Source of the DNA: a virus
Taxonomy: Duplodnaviria; Caudoviricetes
IMG/VR virus record: IMGVR_UViG_3300045996_001729
Coordinates: 1 to 43,086 of that record
DNA length: 43,086 nt
Direction: 5' to 3' (one strand)
A program made the position numbers and the translations under genes. The notes beneath the pieces are model-generated. The model did no database searches and was not told the origin of the DNA. It saw only the letters and a program-made list of their open reading frames with translations. Shown here piece by piece: positions 5,278 to 39,250 of the stretch (within the stretch, counting starts at the first letter, position 1; the number at the start of each line of letters is the position of its first letter).

Positions 5278-5528
5278 CCACGACCCACAAGACCACGATC
5301 GTCGGCAAGTGCCCGCACGGGTGCCCCGACGTGTACGAAGTCGAGTTCACCGTCGCCGGGGAGGCGGTGACGAAGGTGGAGGACATCCAGGCGGCCATCG
5401 ACCGGCTTACGGTTGAGCCGGTGTACCAGGAGGACCTGACGCGGCTGCTGGCGGAGGTGGTCGGGTGCCGGGTGAGGACGGTGGGCTCGCACGGGCGGTT
5501 CCTGACGACGTGCGAGGCGGGCGAGTGA
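5274..5528 (+). CDS. Minimal T-fold QueF-like protein
   Basis: KCP...D.YEV, VE.I, YQEDLT..LA and V...GSH pattern of QueF/QueF-L; coupled to the DpdA-like gene. Confidence 0.65.
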   Translation: MTTTHKTTIVGKCPHGCPDVYEVEFTVAGEAVTKVEDIQAAIDRLTVEPVYQEDLTRLLAEVVGCRVRTVGSHGRFLTTCEAGE

Positions 5529-6214
5529 GGTTCTACCTTTCCAGCCCCGGAAGCCAGATGCACGCGGACCACTGCCGCGGGATGCCCGTGTTGGTGTCGT
5601 TCGCGCTGTACGCCCCGTGGCTGGACGACTACGCGGCCAGCTGGTCCCGGGTGCTGATCGACTCCGGGGCCTACTCCGAGCTCACCGGGAAGGCGAAGGT
5701 GGACGGGGCGGCGTACCGCGACTGGCAGGCCCGCTGGGCGGACACGGCCCACGTCGATGCAATCGCCGGGCTGGACGACATCCGCGGGGACTGGCGGCGG
5801 AGCCTGCGGAACTACGAGCTCTACGGCGGGTTCCCCACGTTCCACGAGACGGACCCGCCGGAGTTGCTGGACGATCTGATCCCCCTGGCCCGGGACCGGG
5901 GCGGGTGGCTGGGGGTCGGGCTGCTGCCGCCGCGGTCGGGGAAGTGGCGGTGGGTCAAGGAGACGCTGGCCCGCGTCCCGGCCGGCCTCCACGTCCACTT
6001 CTGGGCGGGCGGGGAGTACGCCGGGCACCCGCGGGTGGACTCCGCTGACAGCACTAATTGGTTTAGAGACGCCTGGATCTACAAGAACGCGATGCCGTTC
6101 CTGACCCCGGCCGAGTGCGTCGAGCTCGTGGTCAAGAGGTATCAACGGGAACGCCGGCGGCCGGTGGACCCGAGCACCACCGCCGACCTGTTCAGCGGGG
6201 TGGCCGACGGCTGA
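5525..6214 (+). CDS. DpdA-like / TGT-family guanine transglycosylase
   Basis: VLVSF, LIDSGAYS, LDDI, PTFH, LGVG, VHFWAG and DSADSTNW match the TGT/DpdA barrel motifs; GTGA-coupled start at 5525. Confidence 0.8.
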   Translation: MRFYLSSPGSQMHADHCRGMPVLVSFALYAPWLDDYAASWSRVLIDSGAYSELTGKAKVDGAAYRDWQARWADTAHVDAIAGLDDIRGDWRRSLRNYELYGGFPTFHETDPPELLDDLIPLARDRGGWLGVGLLPPRSGKWRWVKETLARVPAGLHVHFWAGGEYAGHPRVDSADSTNWFRDAWIYKNAMPFLTPAECVELVVKRYQRERRRPVDPSTTADLFSGVADG

Positions 6215-6252: not shown

Positions 6253-6642
6253 ATGACGACGACCGAGCCCGACCTGTTCGCCGGCCCGGAGTTGACCGAC
6301 GCCGAGCGGGCCGACCTGGAGGACTACGTGGCCGTGATGACCGAAGCCGCCCGCGACCCCGACGTGGGGGACTACACGGGGCTCACCCCGGGCATGCTGG
6401 TCTGCAACTGCCTGTGCGGCCGGCTGCTGCTGGCCCGCCGCCACGCCCACCTGAGACCCGATATGTACGCGGTGACCGACTCCGACGCGCTGCCGCCGGT
6501 GCTGTTCCGCAAGCGGGTGATGCGGTGCGGCGACGTGACGCGGACCGTCCCCGTGTGCCGCGAGTGCGAGCAGGACGGGACGGCGGCGGTGCGGTGCGCG
6601 GGGGGCGGGCGGTACGCCCTCGGGGCGGGGGGTGAGGGATGA
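6253..6642 (+). CDS. Hypothetical Cys-rich protein
   Basis: GC3-biased ORF with CxCxC and CxxC; coupled to the MTase. Confidence 0.6.
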   Translation: MTTTEPDLFAGPELTDAERADLEDYVAVMTEAARDPDVGDYTGLTPGMLVCNCLCGRLLLARRHAHLRPDMYAVTDSDALPPVLFRKRVMRCGDVTRTVPVCRECEQDGTAAVRCAGGGRYALGAGGEG

Positions 6643-8135
6643 GCGACTGGCACGACGTTCTGGCCGGGACCGCGAGGTGGGCGGTGGAGGCCGGGGGGTG
6701 CCTCGACTGGCTCCGCACGCTGCCCGACGACAGCGTCCACTGCTGGGTGACCAGTCCGCCCTACTACGGGCTGCGGGACTACGGGACCGCGACGTGGGAG
6801 GGGGGCGACCCGGGGTGCGACCACAGGGCCCGGACGGGGGCGGAAGTCGAGACGGGGTGCGTGGCTGCGTCCACGCTCTGCGGGCCGACCGACCCGCAGC
6901 GGGCGGCGCGGGAGGCCCGGTTCGCCTTCCGGGGGTCGTGCGGCAAGTGCGGCGCCCGCCGGGTGGACGAGCAGATCGGGGCGGAGCCGACCCCGGGCGA
7001 GTACGTCGAGCGGATGGTGGAGGTGATGCGGGAGGCGCGGCGGGCGATGCACCCGAGCGGGTGCCTGTGGCTGAACCTCGGGGATAGCTACGCAGCCGGG
7101 AAAACAGGCCGCGCCGACCACGGCTCGGGCGACCCAACAAGCCGGCTCGGCCCGACGCGGGACGGTCTCCCGGGCGGGACGCCGATGGGGCCAGTTCGCC
7201 AGCGGCCGGCACCCGCCGGCACCAAGTCCAAAGACCTCCTCCTCATCCCCACGACGGTCGCCGCCGCCCTCCGCGCCGACGGGTGGTATCTCCGCAGCGC
7301 CTGCCCGTGGGTGAAGCGGAACCCGATGCCGGAGTCGGTGGACGACCGGCCGGGGACCGGGTGCGAGTGGGTGTTCCTGCTGGCGAAGCGGCCCGACTAC
7401 TTCTTTGACATGGAGGCGGTGAAGCGGCCGGCCGTCATCGCGGCCGACGGTCGGGACCAGTACCAGACCCCGAGCTCGCGGAAGCACTCGGCCGACCGGA
7501 ACGACGCCGCCGGCCTGACCAGCATCGGGTTCGGCTGCTCGGAGGGCGGCCGCAACCTCCGCACCTCCGACCTCTGGTTCGACTCCGTGGGGATGCTGCT
7601 CGCGGGCGACGACCCGTACCCCGAGCTCGTCGGGTTCGACGTGACCCCGGAGCGGTACAAGGGGGCACACTTCGCCGTCATGCCCACTCGCCTCGTGGAA
7701 CCCTGCGTCCTCGCCGGGACGAGTGCCCGGGGGGTCTGTCCGTCCTGCGGGGAGCCGTGGGTAAGGCAGGTCGAGAGGAGCCGCCAAGCGACCCGGCCGG
7801 GGACGGACAGCAAGGTCAACAAGCAGGATCAGGCCACGGGCCGGCACGATCAGGTGGGGTTCAACGCCCGGTGGAAGGCGGCCGAGGTGGGCAACCGCGA
7901 CCCGCAACGCCACTGCACGGTCACCCGGACGACGGGCTGGGAGCAGGGCTGCGACTGCGAGCCGGCCGAGCCGATCCCCGCCGTGGTGGGGGATATGTTC
8001 ACGGGCAGCGGCACCGTGGCGCGGGTCGCGGTCGATCTGGGCCGTCGCTTCATCGGGTGCGAGCTTAACGAGGCCTACCACCCGCTCATCCGCCGCCGGC
8101 TGGCGGGGGTGACGCCGTCCATGTTCGGAGGGTGA
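6639..8135 (+). CDS. N4-C/N6-A DNA methyltransferase (beta class) with Cys-rich insertions
   Basis: TSPPY, LWLNLGDSY, HFAVMP, DMFTGSGT, IGCELN. Confidence 0.93.
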   Translation: MSDWHDVLAGTARWAVEAGGCLDWLRTLPDDSVHCWVTSPPYYGLRDYGTATWEGGDPGCDHRARTGAEVETGCVAASTLCGPTDPQRAAREARFAFRGSCGKCGARRVDEQIGAEPTPGEYVERMVEVMREARRAMHPSGCLWLNLGDSYAAGKTGRADHGSGDPTSRLGPTRDGLPGGTPMGPVRQRPAPAGTKSKDLLLIPTTVAAALRADGWYLRSACPWVKRNPMPESVDDRPGTGCEWVFLLAKRPDYFFDMEAVKRPAVIAADGRDQYQTPSSRKHSADRNDAAGLTSIGFGCSEGGRNLRTSDLWFDSVGMLLAGDDPYPELVGFDVTPERYKGAHFAVMPTRLVEPCVLAGTSARGVCPSCGEPWVRQVERSRQATRPGTDSKVNKQDQATGRHDQVGFNARWKAAEVGNRDPQRHCTVTRTTGWEQGCDCEPAEPIPAVVGDMFTGSGTVARVAVDLGRRFIGCELNEAYHPLIRRRLAGVTPSMFGG

Positions 8136-8396: not shown

Positions 8397-8400
8397 CCCC

Positions 8401-8559: not shown

Positions 8560-9036
8560 ATGACCGGACCAGCGTGGGAGCAGGAGCCGAACGAGGATGC
8601 GGACAGCTATGTCCGCTTTCTGGTCTATCGCAACATCGGACCCAACCGGAGTTTGCGGCGGGCTTACCAGAAGTACCTGCAATCTTACGACGGTTACACG
8701 GGCGGCACTGAACGGCTTCACGTGCCGGGGACGTGGCACCGGGACAGCGTCGAGCACCAGTGGGTGAACCGGGCGGCGGCGTGGGACGTGGCGAACCTCG
8801 TGGCCCACGGGGCGCGGCTGGTGGCCCTCCACGCGGGGACGGTGCTGCAGGTCGCCAAGAAGAACGCCCGCGCGGCCCGGCGGCTGAACCCGGGTGACGG
8901 CGGGTGGGACGGGCTGTGCAAGTCCATCAAGCTCGTCCAGGACTGGCTCAGCCCGGAGGTGGTGCGTGGCATCCAGGACCGGGGCGCTCGCCGCGAGTCT
9001 GTTCGCGGCCCCGACGACCGGGCCGCAGTCCAGTAG
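8560..9036 (+). CDS. terS: Putative terminase small subunit
   Basis: Directly before terL; WEQEPNE...Y..F..YR..GP.RSL..AY and W..RA.AWD pattern. Confidence 0.7.
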   Translation: MTGPAWEQEPNEDADSYVRFLVYRNIGPNRSLRRAYQKYLQSYDGYTGGTERLHVPGTWHRDSVEHQWVNRAAAWDVANLVAHGARLVALHAGTVLQVAKKNARAARRLNPGDGGWDGLCKSIKLVQDWLSPEVVRGIQDRGARRESVRGPDDRAAVQ

Positions 9037-10414
9037 CGTCCTCCCCTTCTCGAAGTGGCTCCCGGACGTCAGCCCCGAGCTCGTCTGGGACCACCCCCAC
9101 CTCGACTACGTCCGCCGCCAGCTCGCCGACGTGACCCTCGGCACGTGCCGGAAGCTGGCGATCAGTTGGCCCCCCCAGCACTACAAGACGTGGAGTACGA
9201 CCGTCCGCTACCCGCTGTGGCGGATGCTGCGGACGCCGGGCCTGCGCGTCGGGGTGGGGACGTACAACCAGCGGTACGCGAACAAGGTGAGCCGGTGGAC
9301 GCGGAAGATCGTGGATCGGCTGGGGCTGGTCGCCACCGGCAGCGTCGACTCGTGGCACCTGCCCAACGGCAGCACGTACATCGCGCGGGGGGCCGGGGTG
9401 GGCCTCTCCGGCGAACCCGTGGACCTGTGGGTGTGTGACGACCCGTTCAAGAACCGGGAGTCGGCTGATTCGGCGGTCGTTCAAGAAAAAGTCTGGGAGT
9501 GGCACATGGACGACGTCACGCCCCGCATCCAGCAGGGCGGGGCGTACATCCTCATCCACACCCGCTGGACCCCGGGCGACCTCATCGGGCGGATTCAGAC
9601 GAGCGAGGACGCGCGGAACTGGCGGTACGTGCGGCTGCCGGCGGTGGCCGAGTCGCAGGCGGAGCGGGACCGGGTGAACGGCCGGCAGGGCCTCCCGGTG
9701 GGCGAGCCCGACCCGCTGGAGCGGCAGGAGGGCCAACCCCTCTGTGCGGCGGCGTTCGACGCGGCCAGTCTCCAGGACAAGCGGACCACCCTGGGGGTGG
9801 GGTTTGAGTCGCTGTACCAGCAGAACCCGGTGCCCCGCGGGGGGTCGTTCTTCCAGCGGGAGTGGTTCGCGGTCGTGGACGCGGCGCCGGCCGGGCGGTA
9901 CGTCCGCTACTGGGATCTGGCGAGCTCGCGGGACGACGAGGCGTGTTACACGGCGGGGGTGCTGCTGGGCAAGGCGGGCGAGGGGGAGACGAGTCGGTAC
10001 TACGTGGCGGACGTGATCCGGGGGCGGTGGCAGCCGGCCGAGCGGAACGACGTCATCCTGCAGACCGCACAGGCCGACAGCAAGCGGCCCGGGTTCGAGC
10101 GGACCTACTTCGAGAAGCCCGTGTTCGACAAGGGCGGCGCCGCCTCCCGGGCCATCGTGGCGAAGTTGTCGGGCTACCCGGTGCTGGCGGACAACGTGGG
10201 CGGGGCCGGGTCGAAGGAGCTCCGGGCCGAGCCCGTGGCGGGGGCGGCGAAGGCCGGGCTGGTGTCGGTCGTGGCCGGGGCGTGGGTGGCGACGTTCCTG
10301 ACGGAGATCGAGGCGTTCCCGAAGGGGCAGTGGAAGGACCAGACGGACTCACTATCGGGCGGCTACAACCGGCTGGTGCGGGGGCCGGCCACGGTGTCCA
10401 CGGTCTACCTGTGA
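8966..10414 (+). CDS. terL: Terminase large subunit
   Basis: PPQHYKT (Walker A variant), CDDPFKN, HTRW, YQQNP, YWDLAS, DQTDSLS; GTG at 8966 preceded by GGAGGT. Confidence 0.93.
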   Translation: MASRTGALAASLFAAPTTGPQSSSVLPFSKWLPDVSPELVWDHPHLDYVRRQLADVTLGTCRKLAISWPPQHYKTWSTTVRYPLWRMLRTPGLRVGVGTYNQRYANKVSRWTRKIVDRLGLVATGSVDSWHLPNGSTYIARGAGVGLSGEPVDLWVCDDPFKNRESADSAVVQEKVWEWHMDDVTPRIQQGGAYILIHTRWTPGDLIGRIQTSEDARNWRYVRLPAVAESQAERDRVNGRQGLPVGEPDPLERQEGQPLCAAAFDAASLQDKRTTLGVGFESLYQQNPVPRGGSFFQREWFAVVDAAPAGRYVRYWDLASSRDDEACYTAGVLLGKAGEGETSRYYVADVIRGRWQPAERNDVILQTAQADSKRPGFERTYFEKPVFDKGGAASRAIVAKLSGYPVLADNVGGAGSKELRAEPVAGAAKAGLVSVVAGAWVATFLTEIEAFPKGQWKDQTDSLSGGYNRLVRGPATVSTVYL

Positions 10415-10436: not shown

Positions 10437-10694
10437 ATGGACACGCCCGACCACCGCTGCCCGGCGTGCGACTCCCCCGACGTGTGCCTCGGGGCGTTCC
10501 CGCTGAAGTGCTTCGCCTGCGGCTGGTCCTACCTGAACAAGCACCCGTGCGAGACGTGCGGGGCGCCGGCCGTGGCGGTCATCGGCGGGGCCGGTGGCCG
10601 CCGCTACCGGTGCGCGGCCCACCCGTTCGGGTCCGACGACGTGCGGGCGTCGTTCGCGGGGTTCGTCGCCTCCGTGACCGGGGGCCGCCCGTGA
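10437..10694 (+). CDS. Small zinc-ribbon protein (accessory gene)
   Basis: CPAC, CFAC, CETC, CAAH; own -10. Confidence 0.65.
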   Translation: MDTPDHRCPACDSPDVCLGAFPLKCFACGWSYLNKHPCETCGAPAVAVIGGAGGRRYRCAAHPFGSDDVRASFAGFVASVTGGRP

Positions 10695-11302
10695 CCGACC
10701 TGGAAGCCCTCCTCGCCGCCATCCGCGACAACCCGGACGACGACACGCCCCGGCTCGTCTTCGCGGACTACCTGGACGACCGGGGGGAGGGGGAGCGGGC
10801 GGAGTTCATCCGGGTGCAGGTGGGGTTCGCCCGGATGCCGCCGATGGGCCCGCGGCAGTTCGACCTGCGGTACATGCTCCCGGTGCCGTGGGACGCCTTG
10901 CGGCGGCGGGAGCGGGAACTGAAGTTGGAGTTCGGCCGCGAGTGGTTCGGCGACTCGGCCCTCTGGGTGCCCGCCGACTACCCCGCCGGCGCCTCGCCGC
11001 AAGTCCCGGGACTCGTCATCCGGAGGGGGTTCCCGGACGAGTGGCGGGGGCCGGTTGACTGGTGGCTGATTGCTGCCGACCCCCTGCTCGCCGCCCACCC
11101 CACCCTGCGGCGGGTGACGCTGACCGACCGCACCGACGAGGCCCCCCGCGGCAACGTCTACATTCCGGGGGTGGGCGGCTTCGGGAACAAGGCAAGCTTC
11201 GAGGCCCGCTGGCCCGGGGTCACTTTTACCTTGTCCCCGCCCCCCGCCCGCACCCACCAGTATTCGCACTGGCAGCAGGCGATCGACGCGGCGGCCGTCT
11301 GA
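10691..11302 (+). CDS. TIGR02996-domain protein
   Basis: N-terminus MTDLEALLAAIRDNPDDDTPRLVFADYLDD.GE.ERAEFIRVQ and later RRGF; GTGA-coupled start. Confidence 0.9.
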   Translation: MTDLEALLAAIRDNPDDDTPRLVFADYLDDRGEGERAEFIRVQVGFARMPPMGPRQFDLRYMLPVPWDALRRRERELKLEFGREWFGDSALWVPADYPAGASPQVPGLVIRRGFPDEWRGPVDWWLIAADPLLAAHPTLRRVTLTDRTDEAPRGNVYIPGVGGFGNKASFEARWPGVTFTLSPPPARTHQYSHWQQAIDAAAV

Positions 11303-11310
11303 CCGACTGC

Positions 11311-11338
11311 GGCAGGTTCCCCCCGCCGTGGTGACAGT
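11311..11338 (+). promoter_or_regulatory. Putative late promoter upstream of portal
   Basis: Box + GACAGT at offset 22; ATG follows after 6 nt. Confidence 0.75.
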
Positions 11339-11344
11339 GGGGGC

Positions 11345-12994
11345 ATGGACCCCTCGAACCGATTCCTGTTGGGGTACGGCAAGACGGCGCCGGTGCCGGA
11401 GCAGGTCCGGCAGGGGCGGGCGTACCTCCTCGACGTCATGCAGCGGGGCCTCCCCGGCTACCCCACAGACGACCGCTACCTGCAGTCCCAGAAGTTCACG
11501 AACCTCGTCTACGCCTCCGTCAAGCCCCTGATGCGGGCCGTGCGGAAGGCCGACGTGGTCTGCCTCAAGCGGACCAAGAAGCGCCGCAACCGCACCACGT
11601 TCGGGCCGGGTAGCACCGTCGCCAAGTCCCTGTCGGCCGGCTACGGCAAGAGCCAGCGTGACGACTACGTGCCCGTTGACGCGGGCCACCCCGTCGCGCG
11701 CGTCCTCGACCGACCCCAGCAGCGGGACGGCACGGAGACGCTGGGGGACGTCCTCGAGTACGCGACGATGCAGTCGTCCCTCACGGGGGTGTCGCCGTTC
11801 TGGTGCGTGCCGAGCCTCAAGTACCTCCAGCGGGACGAGTACCGCCCGGTCCAACTCTACGCCCTGCCCACCGCGCTGACGGTCCCCCAGCCGGCGAGGT
11901 CGGAGTTCTACCCGGCCGGCAGCTACCGGATCACCCCCTACTACGCATCGCCCACCGGCGGCTCGGGCTGGTATCAGGGCATGGCCGCGGGGGTGGCGGG
12001 GACGGTCCTGGACGGCCGCGAGATCAAGCGGCGGCTGCACAAGCACCCGTTGTACCGGTGGGACGGGTACTCGCCCCTCACCGCCTGCGCGTTCCTGCTG
12101 GACATCGCGGAGGCGATCGACCAGAGCCGCTGGGCGGCCATGCAGCACGGCACCACCCCCGACATGATCTTCACGGCGGTGGGGATGGATCCCCCGTCCA
12201 TCGCGGCGTTCGAGGAGCAGTTTAAGCAGCGCAACGGCGGCAGCCGCAACCACCGCAAGGTCGTCACCGTCAGCACCCCCCACCCGGAGGGGAAGCTCGA
12301 CGTGAAGACCCCGTTCATCAGCGCCCGGGAGATGGACTACGTCCAGAGCTGGGAGCAGGCGAGCAAGGCCGTGTTCGCGGTGTTCGGCATCCCGGACGTG
12401 CTGGTGTACGGGGGCGGCAACTACGCCGAGAACTACGCGGCCGAGAAGTTCTACTACCGCAACACCGTCGGCCCCGAGTGCGAGGAGTTGGGCGACTTTC
12501 TGACCGCCTCCGTGGCCCAGCCGTGGGAGGAGGAGCCGGGCGAGCTCTGCATCGAGCTCCACCCGGACGAGCCGCGGAACGAGGAACTGGCGGTCATCTC
12601 GGCGAAGGACATGGCCGAGATGGGCCTCACGTTCGTCAACCAGACCCTCGCCTCCCAGAACCTCCCGCCCGTCCCCGGCGGGGACGTGCCCCTGCCGGTG
12701 TATCTGGCGAAGGCGGGGATTGCCGCCGGCACCGCACCCGACCCCACCAAGCCCCCGCCCGGTGGCGACCCGAAGGGCAAGGGCCCGACCGCGGGGGCGC
12801 CCCCGCGGCCCGAGAACAAGGCCGGCAAGGGCACCAAGCCGCCGACCCAGGCCAAGAGCATGAACAGCCTGTCGATGGCGGACGGCGCCGCGGTGATTCC
12901 GCCTGCTACGGTGGGGGTGGCCCGACGCAAGCGGCGCGTGCTCCGCAACAAGGCGGCGGTGGCGTTCGCGGAGCGGGTCATCAAGGGGCTCTAA
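11345..12994 (+). CDS. Portal protein
   Basis: Position after terL; HPV..VL.RP, DGYSPL, GG..N..KV, EMDY....EQ....V.AVFGIP. Confidence 0.88.
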   Translation: MDPSNRFLLGYGKTAPVPEQVRQGRAYLLDVMQRGLPGYPTDDRYLQSQKFTNLVYASVKPLMRAVRKADVVCLKRTKKRRNRTTFGPGSTVAKSLSAGYGKSQRDDYVPVDAGHPVARVLDRPQQRDGTETLGDVLEYATMQSSLTGVSPFWCVPSLKYLQRDEYRPVQLYALPTALTVPQPARSEFYPAGSYRITPYYASPTGGSGWYQGMAAGVAGTVLDGREIKRRLHKHPLYRWDGYSPLTACAFLLDIAEAIDQSRWAAMQHGTTPDMIFTAVGMDPPSIAAFEEQFKQRNGGSRNHRKVVTVSTPHPEGKLDVKTPFISAREMDYVQSWEQASKAVFAVFGIPDVLVYGGGNYAENYAAEKFYYRNTVGPECEELGDFLTASVAQPWEEEPGELCIELHPDEPRNEELAVISAKDMAEMGLTFVNQTLASQNLPPVPGGDVPLPVYLAKAGIAAGTAPDPTKPPPGGDPKGKGPTAGAPPRPENKAGKGTKPPTQAKSMNSLSMADGAAVIPPATVGVARRKRRVLRNKAAVAFAERVIKGL

Positions 12995-13261
12995 ATGCCG
13001 GGTGACACCCTGACCGCCCCGACGTACCCGAACCCGCCGGGGTTCCCGTACACCCTGCGGCACCCCCTGACGCACGTCCGCGGCTGGACGTTCGAGGACG
13101 TGGAACTGGTCGTCAAACCGCTGCGGCTGGAGGCGAGGCCGGCTTCGCCACCCGAGATGGATTTCGTCGCCGCGTGGGCCGAGATCGAGGCTGCCGCCCG
13201 GAAGCACGCCGCCGCGTCCCTGATCGCCCGGCTGACGGCGGGGGACCGCCCGAAGGAGTAG
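12995..13261 (+). CDS. Hypothetical protein
   Basis: Abuts the portal stop; GC3-biased. Confidence 0.6.
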   Translation: MPGDTLTAPTYPNPPGFPYTLRHPLTHVRGWTFEDVELVVKPLRLEARPASPPEMDFVAAWAEIEAAARKHAAASLIARLTAGDRPKE

Positions 13262-13268
13262 CCCGTCC

Positions 13269-16200
13269 ATGCCCCGCCTCCTCAAGTACACCCCGGCCCA
13301 GTTGACCGACATCCTCAAGGCGGCCAAGGCCGCGGGCCGGGACGAGGTGCTGGCCGGGCTGCGCGCCGTGGCCGCGCTCAACGGCAGCGCCCGGCGGGTG
13401 CTCAAGGCCGGCGACTGGGCCGACGACGAGCACCCCGACCCCCTGCCCGAGCCCGACGTGGACCCCCACGCCGCCCTCTGGGAAGCCGCCCTGGGGGCGG
13501 TGCTGGAGGCGAAGGAGGCGGGGGACGAGGAGGCGGTGGCGGGGCTGGTCGAGGCGTACCGGGGGCACCTGGACGACGGGGACCTGCTCGCCGGGGCGGT
13601 GGGGACCGCGGGGGCCGGCGCCGCGATCGAGAAGGCGGTCGGCCGGGTGCTGATGAAGGCCCACGCCTGGAGGAGTGACCAGCACCCCCGCGGCAAGGAC
13701 GGGCGGTTCCTGGCCGTCAGCCGGATCGAGGCCGCCGCCGGCAACCCGAAGGTCGCCGCCGAGCTCCGGGAGGAGGTCCGGCCGGAGGACGCCGGGAAGC
13801 TCGAGACGGCCCTCGCCGACCCCGACCACCTGGGACGCACGAAGGCCGGGCAGCGGCGGCACGAGGCCGGGCAGCGGCGGCAGAAGCGGTCCGCCGACTT
13901 CCGCCGGGCCTCCGAGCTCGCCGACAAGGTGTCCACCGGGCACGCGACGTATGAAGAATTGCAGGAGTTGGGCGACCATCTCGAAGGGCTGTCCGCGGAC
14001 GGACTGCGGTCGTTGCAGAGCCGGATCGAGACGGTGGGGGGCGGGCGGCGGAAGGCCGAGATGGTGGCGGCCTTGAGGGCATCGCTGGACGAGCACCGGC
14101 GGGGGGTGCATGGGGGGGAGTTGGAGGCGGACGCGGGGGCCCCGGCGGGCGAGGACTCGCACCCCGGCAGCGTGTTGACGGACCGGATGGGGAAGCCCAT
14201 CGACCACGAAGGGCGACCACTCCGCCACGGCGACGTGATGGTTCACTCGAACTGGCGGGGCGAGGAGCGGCTGGTGCAGGTCGGCCATGCGTGGGCGAAC
14301 GGCGGCCGGGACGTGAACGGGGTCAGCAAGGACCGTGTGACCGTGACCCCGGACGCCAGCACCCGCAACGCCGGGTTCGGGTTGAGCGACAGCGAGACGG
14401 ACCTGTCCGACCTGCGGCGGGCGACCGCGGACGACGTTCACCGGCTGGCGGCGGCCACGGGCGGCAAGCCGGACGAGTTCCTGAACCCCCACCTGCTCGC
14501 GGGCGGGGCCGCCCCTGCCCCGGGCGGGGACGGCTCCAAGACCGCCGTCCTCCGCGAGGCCGTCCAGTCCCTCGTCGCCGCCGGCCACACCGACGACGAG
14601 ATCACGTCGCTGCTGGGCCGCCCGGGGTCGCCGGGCGAGGGGGCGGTGGGGCGGGTGCTGGGGGAGGTGAGGGGGGAGGGGGCGTCAGCCGCCCCTGCCC
14701 TTCCAGACGCGGCGGGTGATGCGGCCCGACCCGCGGCACCGGGGGCAGGAGATGCGCTCCCCGCCGGCCCCACCGCAGTTGGGGCAGTCGATCCGCTCGT
14801 TGGCGGCGTAGTTGACCGACAGGTAGGGCGGCCCGGGGACCCAACTCACCAGGATGAACCGGCCGTCGGTCAAGTCGAAACCCGCGAACTCCATGCTACG
14901 TCCCCCGGTGGTGTGTCAGGGGATTCTACCGCACCGCCAGAGCCGCACGAGATGACGGCCTACGACTTCGCCACCCAGCACTCGCGGCGGATGACGGAGT
15001 TGCAGCGGACCAAGCCCCGCGACATCGGCAAGTTGTACGGGAAGCGTGGCCCGACCCCGGAACAGGCGGCCGAACACGCCGCCGAGATGAAGGAGTGGAA
15101 CCGGCAGCACCGGCAGGCGAGCAACGCGAACAGGCAGTACCTTGCGGATCAAGGCGCCCACCGCCGGCATGTGGAAGCCGCCCTCGCCGCCGGCCGCCCC
15201 GTCCCCCCCGAAGTCCTCGCCGACTACCCGGACCTCGCCGCCCCCCCGCCCACCCCCGCACCCCCCGCCGCCCCGCCCTGGGTCGCCTCCGACCCCGCCC
15301 ACGCCGCCGTCCACGCGGCGCACCAGACCGCACCGGGCAAGGCCCGGGACGTGATGCAGACGGCCCTGGAGAACGCGGGCTGGGTGGACGAGCACGGCCG
15401 GCCCGCGAAGACCGCCCCGCAGGACGAGCAGGGCGGCCGGACCCCGCTGGGCATGGCCGCGAGCGGATTGGCGACCGGCCACCGGCACCTCGCCGAGAAC
15501 GGGGGGACGCCCGAGGAACTGGCCCACGTCGAACGCGCCCTGGAGGCGGCGGGGGCCACCCGGGTCGGCACCCCGGGCGAGACGGTGCCGTTCGACGGGA
15601 GCGTCCACGGGAACGTCCCGGGGGTGTTCACGGGCGACCCGGTGCGGGTGGTGCATCCCGGCTGGGTGGCGCCGGCGGGGAACGGGCGGGACTCGGACGT
15701 GATGCCGGCGAGGGTTACGGCGGGAAGCCCAGCAGGGCCCGCCACTCCGCCGTCGGCCGGGCCCGGTACTCCGCCGCGTCCTGCTCCCACTGGCCCGCAA
15801 GATGCTCAAGGGCCTCCACCCGGAACTCGTGGTCGGGGAGGTCGGGCGGCGCCCACCCGCACCCCGGGAACCACCGCAGCCACCGCACCGCCTCCCGGCG
15901 GAGCCGCGCCGCCTCCCGCTCCGCAAAGCGGATCTCTTTCGCCGCGAAGTCCCGGGCGTGCGCATCAAGATCGTCAGGCATCGGACGTCCCCCCGGGGGC
16001 ATCATACGGGGCGAAGCCCGCCCTCACGCCGGACGAGCACGCGGCCGAGATGGAGGAGTTGAAGCGGGCCCGGCAGGCGGCGTTCTCCGCGACCGGCGCC
16101 GACCCCCGCGGGGACATGGCCCACATCACCCCGGAGCGGCTGGCGGCGGTGACCCCGGCCATCGCCGGCGAGGTCAAGGCGTGGGCCGACACGCACGCCG

Positions 16201-18209
16201 GGGTCGGCCCGGCCGTCCACGACCTGTACCAGCGGGTCGGCGTCCCGGCGGGGATGAGCCCCCGGGAGTTCCGGGCGGCCATGCTCCATCTGGCCGAGTC
16301 CCGGGTGATCGCCCCGGGGGTGTGGAGCAAGCCGATCGCCGAGGCCCCCCGCCCCGACCTGATCGCCCACCACGCCTCGAAGGCGGTCGGGTACGCCCAC
16401 CCCGACCGCGGGCTGGACGCCGCCGCCAAGCCCGCCCCCCTCCCCGCCCTCCCCGACGACCCCCGCCGCAGCCTCCCGGCCGTGGACGCGGGCCCGTCGC
16501 CGCTGCCGGAGCTGCCGGACCCGGGGGACGTGGCGGTGCCGGAGTTGGAGCCGGTCAAGCCCGCGGGCGACGCACCCTTCATCCCCCGGTCCGGGCAGTT
16601 CAACCCGGCGACTCGAGAACTGCACCGGCACACCTACGCCGTTCGGCTGGGCGACGTGTTGGCGCAACTGGTACGGGAGCACAAGCCCGGGGGGTCCATC
16701 CCGGACGACATCCTGACCACCGCGCGGATCGACACGCGGTACAAGGTGGGGATGACTCCGGAGGACGCCGCCCGGGAAATCTTCCACGACCTCGTGAAGC
16801 CCCGGCTCGACATGCGACCGCCGGAGAAGACGCCGCTCGAGTTGGCCCGGCGGGTGACGCGGCACGGGGCGCCCTCGAAGCCCGCCCCCGCCGCCAATCC
16901 CCCGACCCCGGCCGCGTATACTCCTCCGTCAGCCCCGGAGGCGAAGCCCGTGACCCCGACCGCCAAGCCCGCAGCCGGCCGTCTGACCGGCGACCAGATC
17001 GCGGCCGACTGGGAGGCCGGCCCGCCCCCGACCGCCGAGCGGGCCAACGCCGCGATCCGGGCCGCCGCCGCGATGCCGAAGGCCGAGGCGGCGGCGGCCC
17101 TCCGGGCGATGGGGTTCGTCCCCCGGGGCGACCCGCGGCGGCACCTCGCCGACGCGATCCACGGCCGGGCCGGGGCCACCAGCCGCCGCAACCTGATCGA
17201 CCGGGGCGCCGCCGCCGACGCCAAGCGGGCGGCCGAGGCCGGCACCGACCGGCTCGTCCACCCCGACGAGGTGTTCGGCGCCGCCGCCAAGCCCGCCGCC
17301 GGGCCCGCCCCGAAGCCCGCCCCCGCCCCGAAGCCCGCCCCCGCCGCGGCCGAGCCCCCGGCGTCCGACGCCGGCCGGGCGATGGCCGACCTGCTCGGCC
17401 GGGCGGGGTCGGCCGACCCGGCGGAGGTGGAGGCGGCCCGCGCGACCCTCGCCGGGCTGCCCGGCGACGAACTCCGGCGGGTGGCGGCGGCCCACGGGTT
17501 CCACTACCCGGCGGGCCACTCGGCCCGGAAGGTCGCCGCCGACCTGCACGACCGGATGCAGAAGATCGCCGGGGCCAGCGTCCGGCGGAAGCTCATCAAC
17601 CGGGCGGACCCCGGCCCAAAAGCCCCGGCCCCGGGTGAGCCGGGGAAGGCCGAATCCGGTAATTCCCCCAAGATTCCGTCAGCCGCCAGCGGCGGCCCTC
17701 CGGCCGATCCATTTCATGGCAGCAAGGTTGCCGCCCCTGACGGCAAGCCGATGACCGTCTTCCACGGCACGAGCGGTCCGGCGTTCGACCAGTTCAAGCT
17801 CGGGGCGGGTCAGACCCGGCAGGCGCCGGACTCGGACGTCGGGTTCTGGTTCGCCGACCGGCCGAAGAACGCGGAGATGTACACGTACAACGATAACATT
17901 TGGTCGGGCGCCGGGCCGGTCAAGAAGCTCAAGGGCGCCCGGGTGGTGAGCGCCCACCTGAACATCAAGAACCCGAAGGTTTACGGTTCCTTCCACGACG
18001 TGTTCAGCGAATCGGAGAAGGCTGGCGGCGGCGCGGCGCTCCGGGAAAAGCTGATCGGCGAGGGGCACGACGGCATCCGGGTGCTGGAAGACGCCGGCGA
18101 GCACACGAAGTATCAGCCGGCGTGGGCGGCCTTCCACCCGGAGCAGATCCGGGTGGCCGATGCCGGTTCCGCCCCCGAGCCGCCGAAGGGGCGGCCGAAG
18201 AAGGCGTAA
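13269..18209 (+). CDS. Large polyvalent (probably virion-packaged) protein with C-terminal ART-PolyVal-like ADP-ribosyltransferase fold
   Basis: 1646 aa between portal and protease; W..DQHPRGKDGRF motif, GrpE-like segment near 15530-15670, C-terminal SKV..PDGKP.TVFHGT..F..F...GFWFAD...AE.Y...HLNIKNP. Confidence 0.8.
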   Translation: MPRLLKYTPAQLTDILKAAKAAGRDEVLAGLRAVAALNGSARRVLKAGDWADDEHPDPLPEPDVDPHAALWEAALGAVLEAKEAGDEEAVAGLVEAYRGHLDDGDLLAGAVGTAGAGAAIEKAVGRVLMKAHAWRSDQHPRGKDGRFLAVSRIEAAAGNPKVAAELREEVRPEDAGKLETALADPDHLGRTKAGQRRHEAGQRRQKRSADFRRASELADKVSTGHATYEELQELGDHLEGLSADGLRSLQSRIETVGGGRRKAEMVAALRASLDEHRRGVHGGELEADAGAPAGEDSHPGSVLTDRMGKPIDHEGRPLRHGDVMVHSNWRGEERLVQVGHAWANGGRDVNGVSKDRVTVTPDASTRNAGFGLSDSETDLSDLRRATADDVHRLAAATGGKPDEFLNPHLLAGGAAPAPGGDGSKTAVLREAVQSLVAAGHTDDEITSLLGRPGSPGEGAVGRVLGEVRGEGASAAPALPDAAGDAARPAAPGAGDALPAGPTAVGAVDPLVGGVVDRQVGRPGDPTHQDEPAVGQVETRELHATSPGGVSGDSTAPPEPHEMTAYDFATQHSRRMTELQRTKPRDIGKLYGKRGPTPEQAAEHAAEMKEWNRQHRQASNANRQYLADQGAHRRHVEAALAAGRPVPPEVLADYPDLAAPPPTPAPPAAPPWVASDPAHAAVHAAHQTAPGKARDVMQTALENAGWVDEHGRPAKTAPQDEQGGRTPLGMAASGLATGHRHLAENGGTPEELAHVERALEAAGATRVGTPGETVPFDGSVHGNVPGVFTGDPVRVVHPGWVAPAGNGRDSDVMPARVTAGSPAGPATPPSAGPGTPPRPAPTGPQDAQGPPPGTRGRGGRAAPTRTPGTTAATAPPPGGAAPPPAPQSGSLSPRSPGRAHQDRQASDVPPGASYGAKPALTPDEHAAEMEELKRARQAAFSATGADPRGDMAHITPERLAAVTPAIAGEVKAWADTHAGVGPAVHDLYQRVGVPAGMSPREFRAAMLHLAESRVIAPGVWSKPIAEAPRPDLIAHHASKAVGYAHPDRGLDAAAKPAPLPALPDDPRRSLPAVDAGPSPLPELPDPGDVAVPELEPVKPAGDAPFIPRSGQFNPATRELHRHTYAVRLGDVLAQLVREHKPGGSIPDDILTTARIDTRYKVGMTPEDAAREIFHDLVKPRLDMRPPEKTPLELARRVTRHGAPSKPAPAANPPTPAAYTPPSAPEAKPVTPTAKPAAGRLTGDQIAADWEAGPPPTAERANAAIRAAAAMPKAEAAAALRAMGFVPRGDPRRHLADAIHGRAGATSRRNLIDRGAAADAKRAAEAGTDRLVHPDEVFGAAAKPAAGPAPKPAPAPKPAPAAAEPPASDAGRAMADLLGRAGSADPAEVEAARATLAGLPGDELRRVAAAHGFHYPAGHSARKVAADLHDRMQKIAGASVRRKLINRADPGPKAPAPGEPGKAESGNSPKIPSAASGGPPADPFHGSKVAAPDGKPMTVFHGTSGPAFDQFKLGAGQTRQAPDSDVGFWFADRPKNAEMYTYNDNIWSGAGPVKKLKGARVVSAHLNIKNPKVYGSFHDVFSESEKAGGGAALREKLIGEGHDGIRVLEDAGEHTKYQPAWAAFHPEQIRVADAGSAPEPPKGRPKKA
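14685..14894 (-). CDS. Nested antisense gene: 69-aa protein with two CxxCxGxG (DnaJ-type zinc finger) motifs
   Basis: CPNCGGAG and CPRCRGSG; GC3 bias on minus strand; GGGGGA RBS; TAGAAT -10 at 14928-14923. Confidence 0.75.
   Translation of the reverse strand: MEFAGFDLTDGRFILVSWVPGPPYLSVNYAANERIDCPNCGGAGGERISCPRCRGSGRITRRVWKGRGG
15715..15981 (-). CDS. Nested antisense gene: 88-aa helical protein
   Basis: MPDDLDAHARDFAAKEIRF...; GC3 bias on minus strand; GGGGGGA RBS; TATGAT -10 at 16006-16001. Confidence 0.7.
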   Translation of the reverse strand: MPDDLDAHARDFAAKEIRFAEREAARLRREAVRWLRWFPGCGWAPPDLPDHEFRVEALEHLAGQWEQDAAEYRARPTAEWRALLGFPP

Positions 18210-18271
18210 CCCGCCCCCGGGCGTCTCGCGGGCCGTAGGATGTGGTGCCACGTCACGCGGGGGTGGGGCGA

Positions 18272-19126
18272 ATGCGGAACCCGTTCAGGATCGACGGCCC
18301 GGCGGTGGTGAGTTTCAGCGGGGGGCGGACCTCCGGGCTGATGCTCTGCCGCATCCTCGAAGCCCACGGCGGCACCCTGCCGGCGGACGTGAAGGTGGTG
18401 TTCTGCAACACCGGGAAGGAGCGGGAGGAGACGCTGGAGTTTGTCGAGCGGTGCTCGCAACAGTGGGGCGTGCCGGTGGTGTGGCTGGAGTACCGCTACG
18501 AGCCCGGCGATCCGGAGGGGCGGCACACGTTCGCGGTCGTGGACTTCGCCACCGCCAGCCGCGCCGGTGAGCCGTTCGAGGCGATCGTCCACGCCCGCAA
18601 GTGCCTTCCCAACTTCCGCGCCCGGTTCTGCACCAGCGAACTGAAACTGCGGACCAACATGCGTTACCTCCGGTCGCTCGGCTGGACGGAGTGGGACAAC
18701 GCCATCGGCCTGCGGCACGACGAGCCGCAGCGGGTGGCGAAGATCCGCGGCCGGCAGGAGGTGAAGGCCGAGACGGTGACCCTCCCCCTGGACGCGGCGG
18801 GGGTCACGCTGGCAGACGTGACCGCGTTCTGGGCCGCGCAGCCGTTCGACCTTGCCCTCTCCCCCGAGGAGGGCAACTGCGACCTCTGCTTCCTCAAGGG
18901 GCCGAACAAGGTTCGCCGGCTGATCCGCGACCGCCCTGAATCGGCCGACTGGTGGGCACGCATGGAGACGCTGATACCGAGCCCGACTTACGGAACCCTG
19001 CGGTTCCGTAACGACCGGCCGAGTTACGCGGCCCTCAAGGACCACATGACCCGGCCGGGGCTGTTTCCGCTGGAGTCGTTGGACGAGCCCGACGAGTTGG
19101 CGATCGCCTGCCACTGCACCGACTGA
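18272..19126 (+). CDS. PAPS reductase-family (PP-loop) protein
   Basis: SFSGGRTSG, FCNTGKE..ETLEFV, FCTSELK, IGLR.DE..R, QPFDL, GNCDLCFLKG; TAGGAT -10 at 18236-18241. Confidence 0.9.
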   Translation: MRNPFRIDGPAVVSFSGGRTSGLMLCRILEAHGGTLPADVKVVFCNTGKEREETLEFVERCSQQWGVPVVWLEYRYEPGDPEGRHTFAVVDFATASRAGEPFEAIVHARKCLPNFRARFCTSELKLRTNMRYLRSLGWTEWDNAIGLRHDEPQRVAKIRGRQEVKAETVTLPLDAAGVTLADVTAFWAAQPFDLALSPEEGNCDLCFLKGPNKVRRLIRDRPESADWWARMETLIPSPTYGTLRFRNDRPSYAALKDHMTRPGLFPLESLDEPDELAIACHCTD

Positions 19127-19446: not shown

Positions 19447-19484
19447 CGCCCGCCCCCTTTGCCCCACATCCTACACCCTCCCCC

Positions 19485-20830: not shown

Positions 20831-22036
20831 ATGGCTGATCTGAAGCGTCTCGCCGCCGTGATCGACCAGGCGGGCGAGATCGTGACCCAGCAGGCGATGG
20901 TGGCCGCCCCGCGCGGCGACGTCCACAAGGCCCTGACCACCGTCCCGGCCCAGCCGATCGACCACGAGGTCGAGAACCGGTGGGGGTTCCGCGACCTCGG
21001 CGAGTTCGCCAAGCAGGTGCAGAAGTCCCGGGCCGAGGGCCAGGTCACCGAGACCATCCGCAAGGCGTACTCGTCCGACCGGATCATGAAGGCCGCCACC
21101 GGGATGGGCGAACTGGTGGGCAGTGACGGCGGGTTCCTGGTGCCCCCGCAGTTCAGCAACAAGCTGTTCGAGCGGGTCTACAAGGACAACGACCTGCTCT
21201 CCCGCACCGACCAGTACACGGTCGGCGGGAACAGCATGGTGTTCCCGCGGAACAACGAGTCGAGCCGGGCCACCGGCTCCCGCTGGGGCGGGGTCCGGGC
21301 GTACTGGCTGCAGGAGGGGGCCACCCTCACGCGGAGCGCCCCGACGTTCGGCCGGCTGACCCTCAACCTCAACAAGATGGCCTGCCTCGCGGCCGTCACC
21401 GAGGAGCTGCTGCAGGACAGCAGCATGGCCCTGTCCCAGTACCTCAACCGGGCGTTCCCGAACGAAATCTCGTTCCTCGTCGGGGACAGCCTGATCCGCG
21501 GGACCGGGGCCGGGCAGCCGCTCGGCGTCCTCAACGCCCCGTGCAAGGTGTCCGTCACCCGCGACACCGCCGGCCACGTCACCCTCAACGACATCGAGGC
21601 GATGTGGGCCCGGCGGTTCAAGGGGATGGCCCGGTCGGAGGGCAGCGACGGGTACGTGTGGCTCATCAACCAGGACGTCAACCCGGACCTCGGCAAGCTG
21701 TCGCTCGGGATCGGCACCGCCGGCGTGGCGGCCTACATGCCCCCCGGCGGGCTGAGCACCGGCCCGTACATGACCATCAAGGGCGCCCCGGTGGTCGAGG
21801 TCGAGTGGTGCGAGACGCTGGGCACCAGCGGCGACATCATCCTCGCCGACTGGTCGCAGTACGTCACCATCTCGAAGGGCGGGATGGAGGCGATGCAGTC
21901 CATGCACCTGTACTTCGACAGCGACCAGCAGGCGTTCCGCGTCACCTTCCGGGTGGGCGGGGAGCCGTGGTGGGCCACCAGCCTGACCCCGTACAAGGGG
22001 ACCAACACGCAGTCCCCGTTCGTGGTCCTGTCCTGA
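20831..22036 (+). CDS. Major capsid protein (HK97 fold)
   Basis: DGGFLVPPQF, W..EG, L...KMA....VTEELLQDS, GTG.GQPLGVLN, GDIILADWSQY, F.SDQ.AFR. Confidence 0.95.
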   Translation: MADLKRLAAVIDQAGEIVTQQAMVAAPRGDVHKALTTVPAQPIDHEVENRWGFRDLGEFAKQVQKSRAEGQVTETIRKAYSSDRIMKAATGMGELVGSDGGFLVPPQFSNKLFERVYKDNDLLSRTDQYTVGGNSMVFPRNNESSRATGSRWGGVRAYWLQEGATLTRSAPTFGRLTLNLNKMACLAAVTEELLQDSSMALSQYLNRAFPNEISFLVGDSLIRGTGAGQPLGVLNAPCKVSVTRDTAGHVTLNDIEAMWARRFKGMARSEGSDGYVWLINQDVNPDLGKLSLGIGTAGVAAYMPPGGLSTGPYMTIKGAPVVEVEWCETLGTSGDIILADWSQYVTISKGGMEAMQSMHLYFDSDQQAFRVTFRVGGEPWWATSLTPYKGTNTQSPFVVLS

Positions 22037-24390: not shown

Positions 24391-24421
24391 GCGGGATCCC
24401 CCGGGGGGATTCGCTACTTTT
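24391..24421. terminator. Putative terminator between convergent genes
   Basis: GCGGGATCCC/GGGATTCGC stem followed by TACTTTT. Confidence 0.5.
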
Positions 24422-24764
24422 GTTCTTCGCCCGTGAAGTGGACGATCGTGTCGAACCCGAGGAATTCCACCGCCGGCTGGATCTTCAACCCGACCAGTCG
24501 CAGCACCACCCCGACCATGGACGGCCCGGCGGTGACGGTGAGCCGGTCCCCGCGGGCGATACTGGTGTAGAACGTCGCCCCGGTGACGGTGCCGATCAGC
24601 CCCGCCTGGTCGAACCGCTCCTGCTCGTTGGCCCCGCCCACGTTCAAGAGGCACACCACCCCCGTGTCCCGGGTCGTCCACGACAGGGCCTCGCCGCCGC
24701 CGGCGTCCCGGGTCGCGGTCGGGTACTCGACCGTGACGGTGTGCTCCATCATCGCGTCGAACAT
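24414..24764 (-). CDS. Head closure / head-tail adaptor (SPP1 gp16-like)
   Basis: HTVTV..P...RDAGGG...SW and GDRLTV; coupled to the connector gene. Confidence 0.7.
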   Translation of the reverse strand: MFDAMMEHTVTVEYPTATRDAGGGEALSWTTRDTGVVCLLNVGGANEQERFDQAGLIGTVTGATFYTSIARGDRLTVTAGPSMVGVVLRLVGLKIQPAVEFLGFDTIVHFTGEEQK

Positions 24765-25453
24765 CACGACCCCCCGCCGATCTTGAGCGGGTCGTAGAGC
24801 CCGTACAGCGACGCCAGCACGTCCGGCGAGTGGACCGCCGCGGTCGCCGTGAACGGCCCCGCCCCGCTGTAGCTCGCCCCGTTGAGCGAGGCGGACACCA
24901 GGGGTATCCCCGACTTCCGCCGGGCCAGGATCATCGCCACGGCCTGATAGACCGCCGTCCGCACCCGGGGGGGTACGACGGTGTAGCCGTAGGTGTAGTT
25001 CACCAACACGGCCCCGGGCACGCTGACCACGTCGGACGCGAGCCGGCCGTAGGGGCGGACCAGCGAGGCGCCCCAGAACGAGGCGTTGAGGATCTCGACC
25101 GTCCCGTACTTCGACCACCCCTCCGGCCGCTGGTCGATGACCAGCCGGTAGTCCGTGTAGGCCACCTTGAGGTAGTCGCTGGTGAACAGGCTGGGGTCGC
25201 CCTTCGCGTCCCGGCGGACGTAGAGGCTGGTTATGGCCCGGACGGGGCGGAGCGGCAGGTAGAGCTTCTGGGAGCCCCACGGGGCGTCCAGGACGTGACT
25301 GGTGGCGGTCCCCGCCTCCAGCACGGTCGGGTGGACGAGGGCCTTGACCGCGTCCTCGACCTCCGCCACCACGTCGGCGACGGCGGTCTGCTGGGCGGCG
25401 GTCAGCGTGAGCTGGTTCCGCTGGGCGAACTCCTCGGCGCTGGCGAGTGCCAT
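24764..25453 (-). CDS. Head-tail connector (HK97 gp6/SPP1 gp15-like)
   Basis: LAS.EEF, LPLRPV..ITSL, V.V.YTYGY..VPP.VR.AV. Confidence 0.8.
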   Translation of the reverse strand: MALASAEEFAQRNQLTLTAAQQTAVADVVAEVEDAVKALVHPTVLEAGTATSHVLDAPWGSQKLYLPLRPVRAITSLYVRRDAKGDPSLFTSDYLKVAYTDYRLVIDQRPEGWSKYGTVEILNASFWGASLVRPYGRLASDVVSVPGAVLVNYTYGYTVVPPRVRTAVYQAVAMILARRKSGIPLVSASLNGASYSGAGPFTATAAVHSPDVLASLYGLYDPLKIGGGS

Positions 25454-38399: not shown

Positions 38400-39164
38400 C
38401 TACCCGCCGACGGGCGTGGTGAGGGCGGCTGCCGCCGTCCAGCCGCGTTGCAGTCGTGCGCGGATGGTCGGGGACGCGATGCCGGTCACCGCCTCCCACT
38501 CGCCCGCCGTGAGCGTGCGGCCGTCGTGGGTGATGGTCGTCACCTGTTCGGCCGGGGCGGCGATGGCGGCGGCGAACGACATGCCCGCGTCAAGGCGGTT
38601 GCGGAGGGTCGTCGGCTTGAGGCCGACCCGCACCGCCCACCGCGTCATGCTCAGCGTCTCCCCGTTGTGGGTGTACCGGCGGGTGCGGGTGGTGTTGTCC
38701 GCTTGCTCCACGCGGGTGGCCCAGACGCAGTTCTCGGGCGAGTAGGGGCCGTCCACGTCCTTCCGCTCGATGGTGTGGGCGAGGGTGGGTCGCTCACCCA
38801 TGTCTGCGAGGAAGTTCTCGAACGAGTGGCGCCACCGGTCGCAGACGGCGATACCGCGACCGCCGTAGCGATCGTAACCGGTGGCGTTCGCCCTGTGGCA
38901 GCGGGAGTTCATTACCGCCCACGTTCGGTACTCCGGGCTGTGGGATCGCCCGTGAGACGTGACCGTCTCCCGCTGGAGACACCCGCAACTGCGGTGCTTC
39001 CCGGCGGTCAGAGACGTGGCAAACGCGATGCTCTCGCCCCCGCAGTCGCACCGGCACCGCCAGAGAACCTTCTTGCCCTTGCGGCCGGCGAAGGCGGTCA
39101 CCAGCAGCCGGTCGAACCGTCGGCCTTCGAGGTCTTGGAACCGCCAGTGTGTCGGCTTGTCCAC
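38400..39164 (-). mobile_element. Free-standing HNH-family homing endonuclease gene
   Basis: WRCRCDCG, SCGC, YGGRGI.VC.RW..F..F.ADMG.RP, TIER.D.DG.YSPENC.WAT; two C-terminal HTH repeats; own TATAGT -10 at 39211-39206 and GAGGA RBS. Confidence 0.88.
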
Positions 39165-39250
39165 GATGGATCGTCCTCGGGCGAGTGTGGCGAACAACAC
39201 GCCACACTATACGCACCGTGGGCATCCAATAATTAGGGGAGGGTAAGAAA

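Follow-up and report, generated by a model that had tools for sequence, protein, structure and literature searches.

The 43,086-base virus record IMGVR_UViG_3300045996_001729 (GC content, 72.6%), analyzed over its whole length and called the window below, encodes a giant modular protein of the polyvalent type. Its open reading frame (ORF) lies on the plus strand at positions 13269 to 18209, between the portal and head genes, and specifies 1646 amino acids (aa). Two small genes, designated A and B, are found inside this ORF on the opposite strand. With a probability of roughly 0.64, they represent accessory genes, each with its own predicted promoter and ribosome-binding site (RBS), which are carried as passengers between the modules of the giant protein and would be read in its frame as disordered spacer.

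Gene A occupies positions 14685 to 14894 on the minus strand, runs from ATG to TGA, and encodes 69 aa. It lies entirely within the stop-free plus-strand ORF, and its codons are in register with those of the giant gene. The preliminary description of this region reported that the plus frame remains open across A but is poor in G+C at third codon positions (GC3), with a GC3-biased minus frame, and the counts agree: GC3 is 41/69 (0.59) in the plus frame and 66/69 (0.96) in the minus frame. Tested against the pooled value of 0.94, the plus-frame count has a binomial P value of 8e-17. The lowest GC3 of any 69-codon stretch is 0.83 across 19 other genes of the window and 0.75 in the remainder of the giant gene. 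A 20th control entry (32946 to 34037), which was in the wrong frame and had inflated the tail of the null distribution, was dropped from this set. With eight other genes as its training set, a codon model favors the minus frame in three of the five windows over A. Both edge windows favor the +1 frame, which shares the third positions of A; the longest ORF in that frame over A is merely 31 aa. The 69-aa product contains two CxxCxGxG motifs, as originally described, and these are two of the four such motifs in all six frames of the 43-kb sequence.

A search of 1.84 billion proteins with the A sequence gives 46 matches at an E value of ≤0.001, nearly all of them confined to the cysteine motif. 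Two small proteins match A from its start, P0006 (66 aa; 47% identity; E = 8.4e-9) and P0047 (64 aa; 38 to 42% identity; E = 8.4e-4). In the alignment of the three sequences (A1), the starts of both proteins coincide with that of A, and their ends lie at most 9 columns away. Common to all three are M1, L8, D10, G11, the WVxGPPYLxVxY stretch, and four cysteines; C37, C40, C50, C53, G55, and G57 are invariant in 3/3 sequences. Residues 1 to 32 of A, the half without cysteines, share 18 of 32 positions with P0006 (56%). Since the full-length homologues share both this N-terminal WVxGPPYL half and the four cysteines, it is very probable that gene A is genuine.

The predicted structure of A consists of a three-stranded N-terminal sheet with the conserved DGR..WVxGPPYL motif, followed by one four-cysteine DnaJ-type zinc finger. 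In the model, the pLDDT (predicted local distance difference test) values of the three strands are in the 70s, the finger is uncertain, the overall pLDDT is 63.5, and there is no C-terminal helix. The two CxxCxGxG repeats (14724 to 14786, minus strand; C37, C40, C50, and C53, all invariant) give the pattern of a single DnaJ-type finger, namely, two CxxC knuckles plus GxG with four conserved cysteines, suggesting that A may bind one zinc ion through these cysteines. Profile A1 matches the structures 1exk (E = 8e-6) and 3lcz (E = 7e-4) at positions 30 to 60. The CxxCxGxG repeats are shared with the central zinc finger of DnaJ (PF00684) and with the anti-TRAP protein RtpA (NF058604; PDB 3lcz and 2bx9). 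A differs in its conserved N-terminal sheet, which lies outside the 1exk and 3lcz matches, and in having no J domain and no predicted C-terminal helix. Anti-TRAP has such a helix. The earlier mention of a DnaJ zinc finger therefore holds for the motif and not for the family: A has two repeats in 69 aa, lacks a J domain, and scores 16.7 bits against PF00684 (cutoff, 32.7) and 16.7 bits against TIGR02349 (cutoff, 377). Assignment to RtpA fails as well (NF058604, 16 bits versus 65; no helix in the model). Searches of Pfam, PHROGs, and NCBIfam assign neither A nor B to any nuclease family.

Gene B, missing from the preliminary description, is found at positions 15715 to 15981 on the minus strand by a codon scan, in which the plus frame collapses at codons 816 to 905 and the minus frame takes over. 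It encodes 88 aa, with a GC3 of 0.90 in the minus frame versus 0.53 in the plus frame. A single-sequence model, folded without the first Met, predicts a helical hairpin with a pLDDT of 85.5, and fold searches with it return generic helical hairpins only. A 96-aa version of B starting at 16005 was rejected, as its start falls inside the -10-like box described below. B is less secure than A, because no search revealed a homologue of it. A third nested gene, considered at 17596 to 17712, was rejected because no frame there scores as coding. The codon bias of the giant gene does show a third dip at 17600 to 17730, which has no alternative coding frame. This stretch aligns with one in P0002, a homologue of the giant known as a protein only; the P0002 peptide there, PLDT...VGNT, could be a read-through promoter.

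Both nested genes are preceded by plausible start signals. The RBS and spacer of A (14895 to 14906, minus strand) have the form GGGGGACGT-nnn before the ATG, which is common to A and B. The GGGGGA (14906 to 14901) and TAGAAT (14928 to 14923, minus strand) noted previously are both present. The RBS of A lies 6 nt and TAGAAT, its likely -10 box, 28 nt upstream of the ATG. Allowing one mismatch, GGGGGACGT-nnn-ATG has two matches in the window (A and B) versus 0.49 expected, and 9 of 100 shuffles reach two. The start region of B (15982 to 16006, minus strand) combines GGGGGACGT with TATGAT (16006 to 16001), a putative -10 box located 19 nt upstream of the ATG. The GTANNAT pattern is likewise found upstream of intergenic genes at 18272, 19446, and ~25685. 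Its frequency is within chance, so the -10 assignment for A relies on position rather than on count. No terminator was found after A in the terminator scan.

The giant gene appears to be under a different kind of control. A 13-mer, CGGCAGGTTCCCC, occurs in 10 exact copies versus 0.03 expected, at 8400, 11310, 19484, 25513 (minus strand), 25730, 26736, 30400, 34438, 35169, and 40655. It precedes the portal gene, the gene at 19521, and other structural clusters and is oriented with them; the minus-strand copy precedes an inverted pair of head-tail adaptor genes. Most likely, CGGCAGGTTCCCC is a late-promoter element (or else an activator site), and the copy at 11310 to 11322 (plus strand) likely serves the portal-giant unit, the next copy being that at 19484. 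At 19484 and 25730, a -10-like box on the minus strand adjoins CGGCAGGTTCCCC in back-to-back orientation. No copy of CGGCAGGTTCCCC precedes A or B, and their -10-like boxes resemble those of the intergenic genes. We infer from this that A and B belong to an accessory class probably transcribed by the host polymerase and expressed at a different time than the giant gene.

The open plus frame across the inserts says little about selection. Of 6326 windows of 70 codons within the genes of this phage, 5867 have an in-register antisense frame that is open throughout. After random synonymous redraws, the giant frame remains open in 4527 of 5000 cases across A and 4193 of 5000 across B, a chance expectation of 84 to 91%. 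The open frame is expected by chance in such GC-rich DNA and so is no sign of selection on both frames. The peptides read in the plus frame over A and B give a local match above shuffles in 0/6 homologous giants. The description of the segment as fully dual coding was therefore overstated as a sign of selection, the frame being open about 90% of the time by chance and its peptide being unmatched in six homologues. If the giant protein is translated from 13269, read-through of the inserts is nevertheless forced by the sequence. The read-through of cassette A (giant aa 473 to 559; 14685 to 14945, plus strand) is likely a disordered linker. The peptide over A consists of 50% P+G+A with zero aromatic residues, and that over B consists of 62% P+G+A.

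The giant protein has the features of a polyvalent protein: a length of 1646 aa, the portal upstream and the capsid downstream, an ART-PolyVal domain, and modules that are shuffled in its homologues. The ADP-ribosyltransferase-like ART-PolyVal domain (PF18760; aa 1491 to 1631; 17739 to 18161; E = 1.1e-11, above the cutoff) is the sole named domain found in it. The N-terminal module (N-module; aa 60 to 290; 13446 to 14138) matches P0001 at 64% and L004 at 52%, and the giant gene holds the same genomic position in the loci L004 and L006. The module just before A (aa 421 to 466; 14529 to 14666) is present in P0001 with a score of 91, versus 56 for the best of 60 shuffles. A PEVLADYPDL module after A (aa 631 to 660; 15159 to 15248) is matched in four of six homologues. 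The module just before B (aa 766 to 816; 15564 to 15716) matches P0001 and P0003, and its end coincides with the stop codon of B; the module resembles GrpE, but it has no Pfam match, and that identity was rejected. All of these modules are on the plus strand. The stretches of the giant gene after A and after B (15067 to 15129 and 16030 to 16092) are 71% alike over 63 nt and share an EHAAEM motif, which hints at an old duplication of a promoter plus an adjacent module. Farther downstream, TATACT, GGAGG, and an in-frame GTG (16917 to 16952, plus strand) form a possible internal sense promoter and start, with a predicted 419-aa C-terminal product that includes the ART domain.

The comparison set consists of three protein homologues (P0001, P0002, and P0003) and of loci from viral, metagenome, and genome scans. 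In P0001, a single chain contains first the module preceding A, then the one following A, and then the one preceding B. P0002, P0003, and L021 have the N-module joined to the region after B. Since the homologues keep the flanking modules in one chain and lack the inserts, A and B are most likely lineage-specific passenger cassettes. The full-length homologues of A and the conserved flanking modules likewise make the original proposal, that a complete gene was inserted into the giant gene and is read through as a linker, the most likely one for A. Illegitimate recombination would have placed each cassette into a linker between modules. The length of an insert need only have been divisible by three, the antisense frame being nearly always open in 73% GC DNA. 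Once in place, A and B would be transcribed leftward from TAGAAT and TATGAT by a host polymerase of the sigma-70 type, as with the intergenic accessory genes of the phage, and probably at another time than the giant gene, which follows the late-type motif. The giant protein may be an effector packaged in the virion, with long Pro/Ala linkers that can accommodate 90 to 100 additional residues; PMC5512222 places polyvalent phage proteins among late genes and describes them as probably packaged. Anti-TRAP is a single-finger protein that acts as a small protein-binding module. By analogy with such proteins, A would most likely be a small protein-binding module acting on a host target.

Several observations weigh against the passenger-cassette interpretation. 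The evidence for both genes is at the sequence level, and A has only two homologues, known as protein sequences alone. A profile A1 search finds just P0006 and P0047; A has no match in the 90% protein set or in plasmids, the profile finds none in viral contigs or in five records of related loci, and its two matches in 267 genomes, like the matches of A in phages, cover the cysteine motif only. The fold of A has no match at an E value of ≤0.001 in PDB or BFVD (best Z score, 4.5), and its finger is modeled with low confidence. B has no homologue in the Atlas, in phages, or in viral contigs, and its one match in 267 genomes is a helical stretch in an unrelated long ORF. Neither gene has a -35 box, and a consensus promoter scan finds 0 sites in 13000 to 18400; GTANNAT occurs 10 times versus 6.5 ± 2.6 in shuffles, with 13 of 100 shuffles reaching 10. 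In tblastn searches of the fetched loci, neither A nor B is found beyond the cysteine motif, and the antisense nesting is seen in this phage only. Sequencing-run contigs span the right-hand junctions of A and B only (run X1, 14826 to 14976, and run X2, 15781 to 16131, each with 0 differences) at a depth of 2 to 3, and one run, X1, may be the source sample. They leave the left junctions of both genes unbridged, and the region left of A is uncovered. Finally, target-site duplications were not found, nor was any close relative in which the site is precisely empty, and for this reason, capture by loss of a stop codon remains a rival to insertion.

One alternative is a functional partnership of A and B with the giant protein. 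Their antisense transcripts would dampen leaky expression of the toxic ART domain before the late phase, or their products would neutralize a domain of the giant, so that an antidote is locked to its effector. Provided that both promoters work, this layout does entail convergent overlapping transcription, and the giant protein ends in ART-PolyVal. In the related locus L023, a P-loop region with a Zeta-toxin match is immediately followed by a nested gene on the same strand, at the position expected of an antitoxin. However, the ART domain is ~940 codons away from A and ~575 codons away from B, both inserts are missing from relatives that share the flanking modules, none of the five proteins checked has a PADLOC match, and the homologues of A are not known beside such a gene. 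This makes a partnership unlikely. The earlier suggestion that A might regulate or neutralize the protein encoded by its host gene finds no support in any of the results; a predicted complex of A with the ART domain scores 0.00, which is no evidence either way. In a broader form of this idea, polyvalent genes would be landing strips for expression cassettes in either orientation, with antisense products restraining a virion-borne ADP-ribosyltransferase until the late phase, a doubtful proposition at present. With two genes in reverse orientation plus a sense promoter in its interior, the late ORF would then double as an early or lysogenic accessory locus, an effector-antidote unit invisible to gene callers, which is likewise improbable.

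The giant gene might instead be a late fusion, in which three plus-strand genes once flanked A and B as divergent neighbors and the upstream stop codons were lost, with the pieces perhaps still made from internal starts. An ATG follows each cassette (14952 and ~16050), in the stretches that are 71% alike, and putative sense promoters with an RBS and in-frame starts are read through both in this giant gene (16917) and in L008. Yet the ATG at 14952 has no preceding RBS, and in P0001 the flanking modules are already joined in a single chain. A PHEMT string is internal in P0002, as judged by eye, in a stretch that did not beat shuffles. We consider this history improbable. Also rather unlikely is the possibility that A and B are once-real captured genes, now silent relics that serve as linker DNA only. 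Such decay would fit the lack of -35 boxes, and the plus-frame GC3 of 0.53 to 0.59 does indicate only little time or selection on that frame; however, A retains an intact start, RBS, and -10-like box as well as its four cysteines and its stop codon, its length fits that of its homologues, and two cassettes are intact simultaneously, with identical (low-depth) run contigs. That the minus ORF arises as the shadow of low-complexity, GC-rich sequence or of a gene in the +1 frame, or that it comes from a chimeric assembly, is highly improbable and, for A, largely refuted by full-length homologues that include the non-cysteine half: open antisense frames are indeed common (228 ORFs of at least 60 aa in the window) and the Atlas score is 0.87 with low recognition, but the +1 frame that shares the third positions of A holds only 31 codons there, and the run contigs are identical over both right junctions.

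Nested genes are found elsewhere in the family of the giant protein, in which relatives carry 2H, Zeta-like, and SNF2 domains. A nested-gene detector was tuned to A and B (the first two settings missed A, and the third was used); it finds both, and the 18 control genes yield no call. Applied to 13 giants with the N-module, some of them truncated or fused to the portal, it makes three same-strand calls in two giants and 0 antisense calls. L007 (a duplicate of L006), L009, L027, and L028 (short frames), and L010 and L011 (weak) were left out. A further set of 75 more distant giants, drawn from 92 motif loci after removal of 13 without a long ORF and 4 duplicates, gives 0 calls, with low power, as GC3 is at least 0.8 in only 4 of the 75. 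L023 has two ORFs in the +1 frame, 9008 to 9208 and 7637 to 8023 (both minus strand; 66 and 128 aa), within a Zeta-like/SNF2 giant of 3100 codons. Their promoter signals are clear, namely, TATAAT with GGAGGG and TTGACA-16-TACACT. The first of these ORFs, which directly follows the P-loop region with the Zeta-toxin match, is an antitoxin candidate; for the second, a TnpV identity was rejected (no PF14198 match). In L008 (11553 to 11630), a TTGACA...AATAAT promoter, an RBS, and an ATG are read through in the giant frame, and a TTGAC-N2-GTCAA inverted repeat lies across the -35 box. Other small +1 ORFs in related giants include L006:7530-7712, L008:10545-10685, L002:8719-8922, L001:5834-6004, and L021 aa 1222 to 1285; the L021 ORF passed the detector, and those of L001, L002, L006, and L008, noted by eye, did not. 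Engulfed cassettes thus recur in this family, and the antisense orientation is seen here only. No second copy of the nested layout was found in the comparison loci, nor was A found with any related giant among the fetched loci, and the portal and the whole giant as single queries have no match in viral contigs.

Genes within genes have several precedents. In phage lambda, Rz1 lies within the frame of Rz on the same strand, as a functional partner. Actinobacteriophage inteins carry antisense LAGLIDADG or VSR-like endonuclease genes (10.1101/2025.01.02.630785). As in those inteins, a complete opposite-strand gene here lies in an open phage gene, and the reading in the host gene's frame has no recognizable structure. 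In the inteins, however, the passenger is a homing endonuclease and the filler is spliced out of the protein, whereas here no search identifies either passenger as a nuclease, and the protein would retain the filler. An intein was rejected, since neither the giant protein nor the region from 14685 to 14945 has a Hint or intein family match and the insert is ~90 codons long, most of which belong to A. A group I or II intron was rejected also (0 Rfam matches at the gathering score in the window). The ShiLan element, the gene of an HNH endonuclease, out of frame and inserted in a phage methylase gene (PMC11855218), is similar in that the insertion keeps the frame and contains no stop codon, conceals a whole gene in a different frame, and has no splicing domains. 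It differs in encoding, on the same strand, a 195-aa homing nuclease that spreads among phages. Genes A and B lie antisense, encode 69 and 88 aa, have their own promoter-like sites, and are found at this site only; with no HNH, LAGLIDADG, or similar nuclease family in either, a homing endonuclease insertion of the ShiLan type was rejected. Embedded antisense genes of Escherichia coli and Pseudomonas (PMC9927249 and PMC8850804) also lie wholly within the frame of another gene. PMC8850804 terms its antisense ORFs evolutionarily novel; unlike those, the nested gene here is old and has homologues, and the peptide in the host gene's frame is the by-product. The giant protein resembles known polyvalent proteins in being large and modular, in its place among late head genes, and in its ART-PolyVal domain (PMC5512222). 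The main text of that paper has 0 mentions of "overlap" or "antisense" and uses "nested" for a hairpin fold only, and in the literature covered, which left supplements and most subscription papers outside the search, no paper was found that describes nesting within the genes of polyvalent proteins. Concealed genes within an open gene of a phage are known as such; what is novel here is that they are antisense, occur twice, are not nucleases, and have promoter-like sites of their own.

The remainder of the window is that of a tailed phage, with terminase (8894 to 10414), portal (11345 to 12994), and major capsid (20831 to 22036) genes, as well as head-tail and tape measure genes. One gene of the window matches the TIGR02996 family, and the N-module of the giant protein is matched in a Limnoglobus metagenome-assembled genome and in 8 of 267 genomes of the same order; from these two observations, the host is likely a planctomycete of the Gemmatales. 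In several Gemmatales loci (L022, L026, L024, L021, and L009), the N-module is, by eye, fused behind portal-like or other head-protein sequence. Between the terminase and portal genes (10437 to 11302), a Cys-rich 85-aa ORF lies downstream of TATACT, and the TIGR02996 gene is located in this interval as well. The head-tail adaptor and head-closure genes (24414 to 25453, minus strand) are inverted relative to the remaining structural operon, and a separate copy of CGGCAGGTTCCCC belongs to them. PAPS-reductase-like, queuine tRNA-ribosyltransferase-like, and N6/N4 methylase genes (18272 to 19126, 5465 to 6214, and 6639 to 8135, respectively) could form a DNA modification set. An HNH endonuclease gene (38400 to 39200, minus strand; PHROGs E = 2e-63) lies antisense amid late genes.

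The weight of these findings is limited by their source, a single uncultured phage, and the function proposed for A is based on analogy. Gene A would define a small, unnamed zinc finger family characterized by the WVxGPPYL motif plus two CxxCxGxG repeats. The arrangement suggests a route to overlapping genes besides overprinting, in which an old gene is engulfed and the frame of its new host gene reads it as spacer, at nearly no cost when the GC content is high. Gene callers drop such engulfed genes, so that the accessory repertoires of phages may be undercounted and the "linkers" of giant proteins misread. The GC3-phase test used here offers a simple way to find further engulfed genes.

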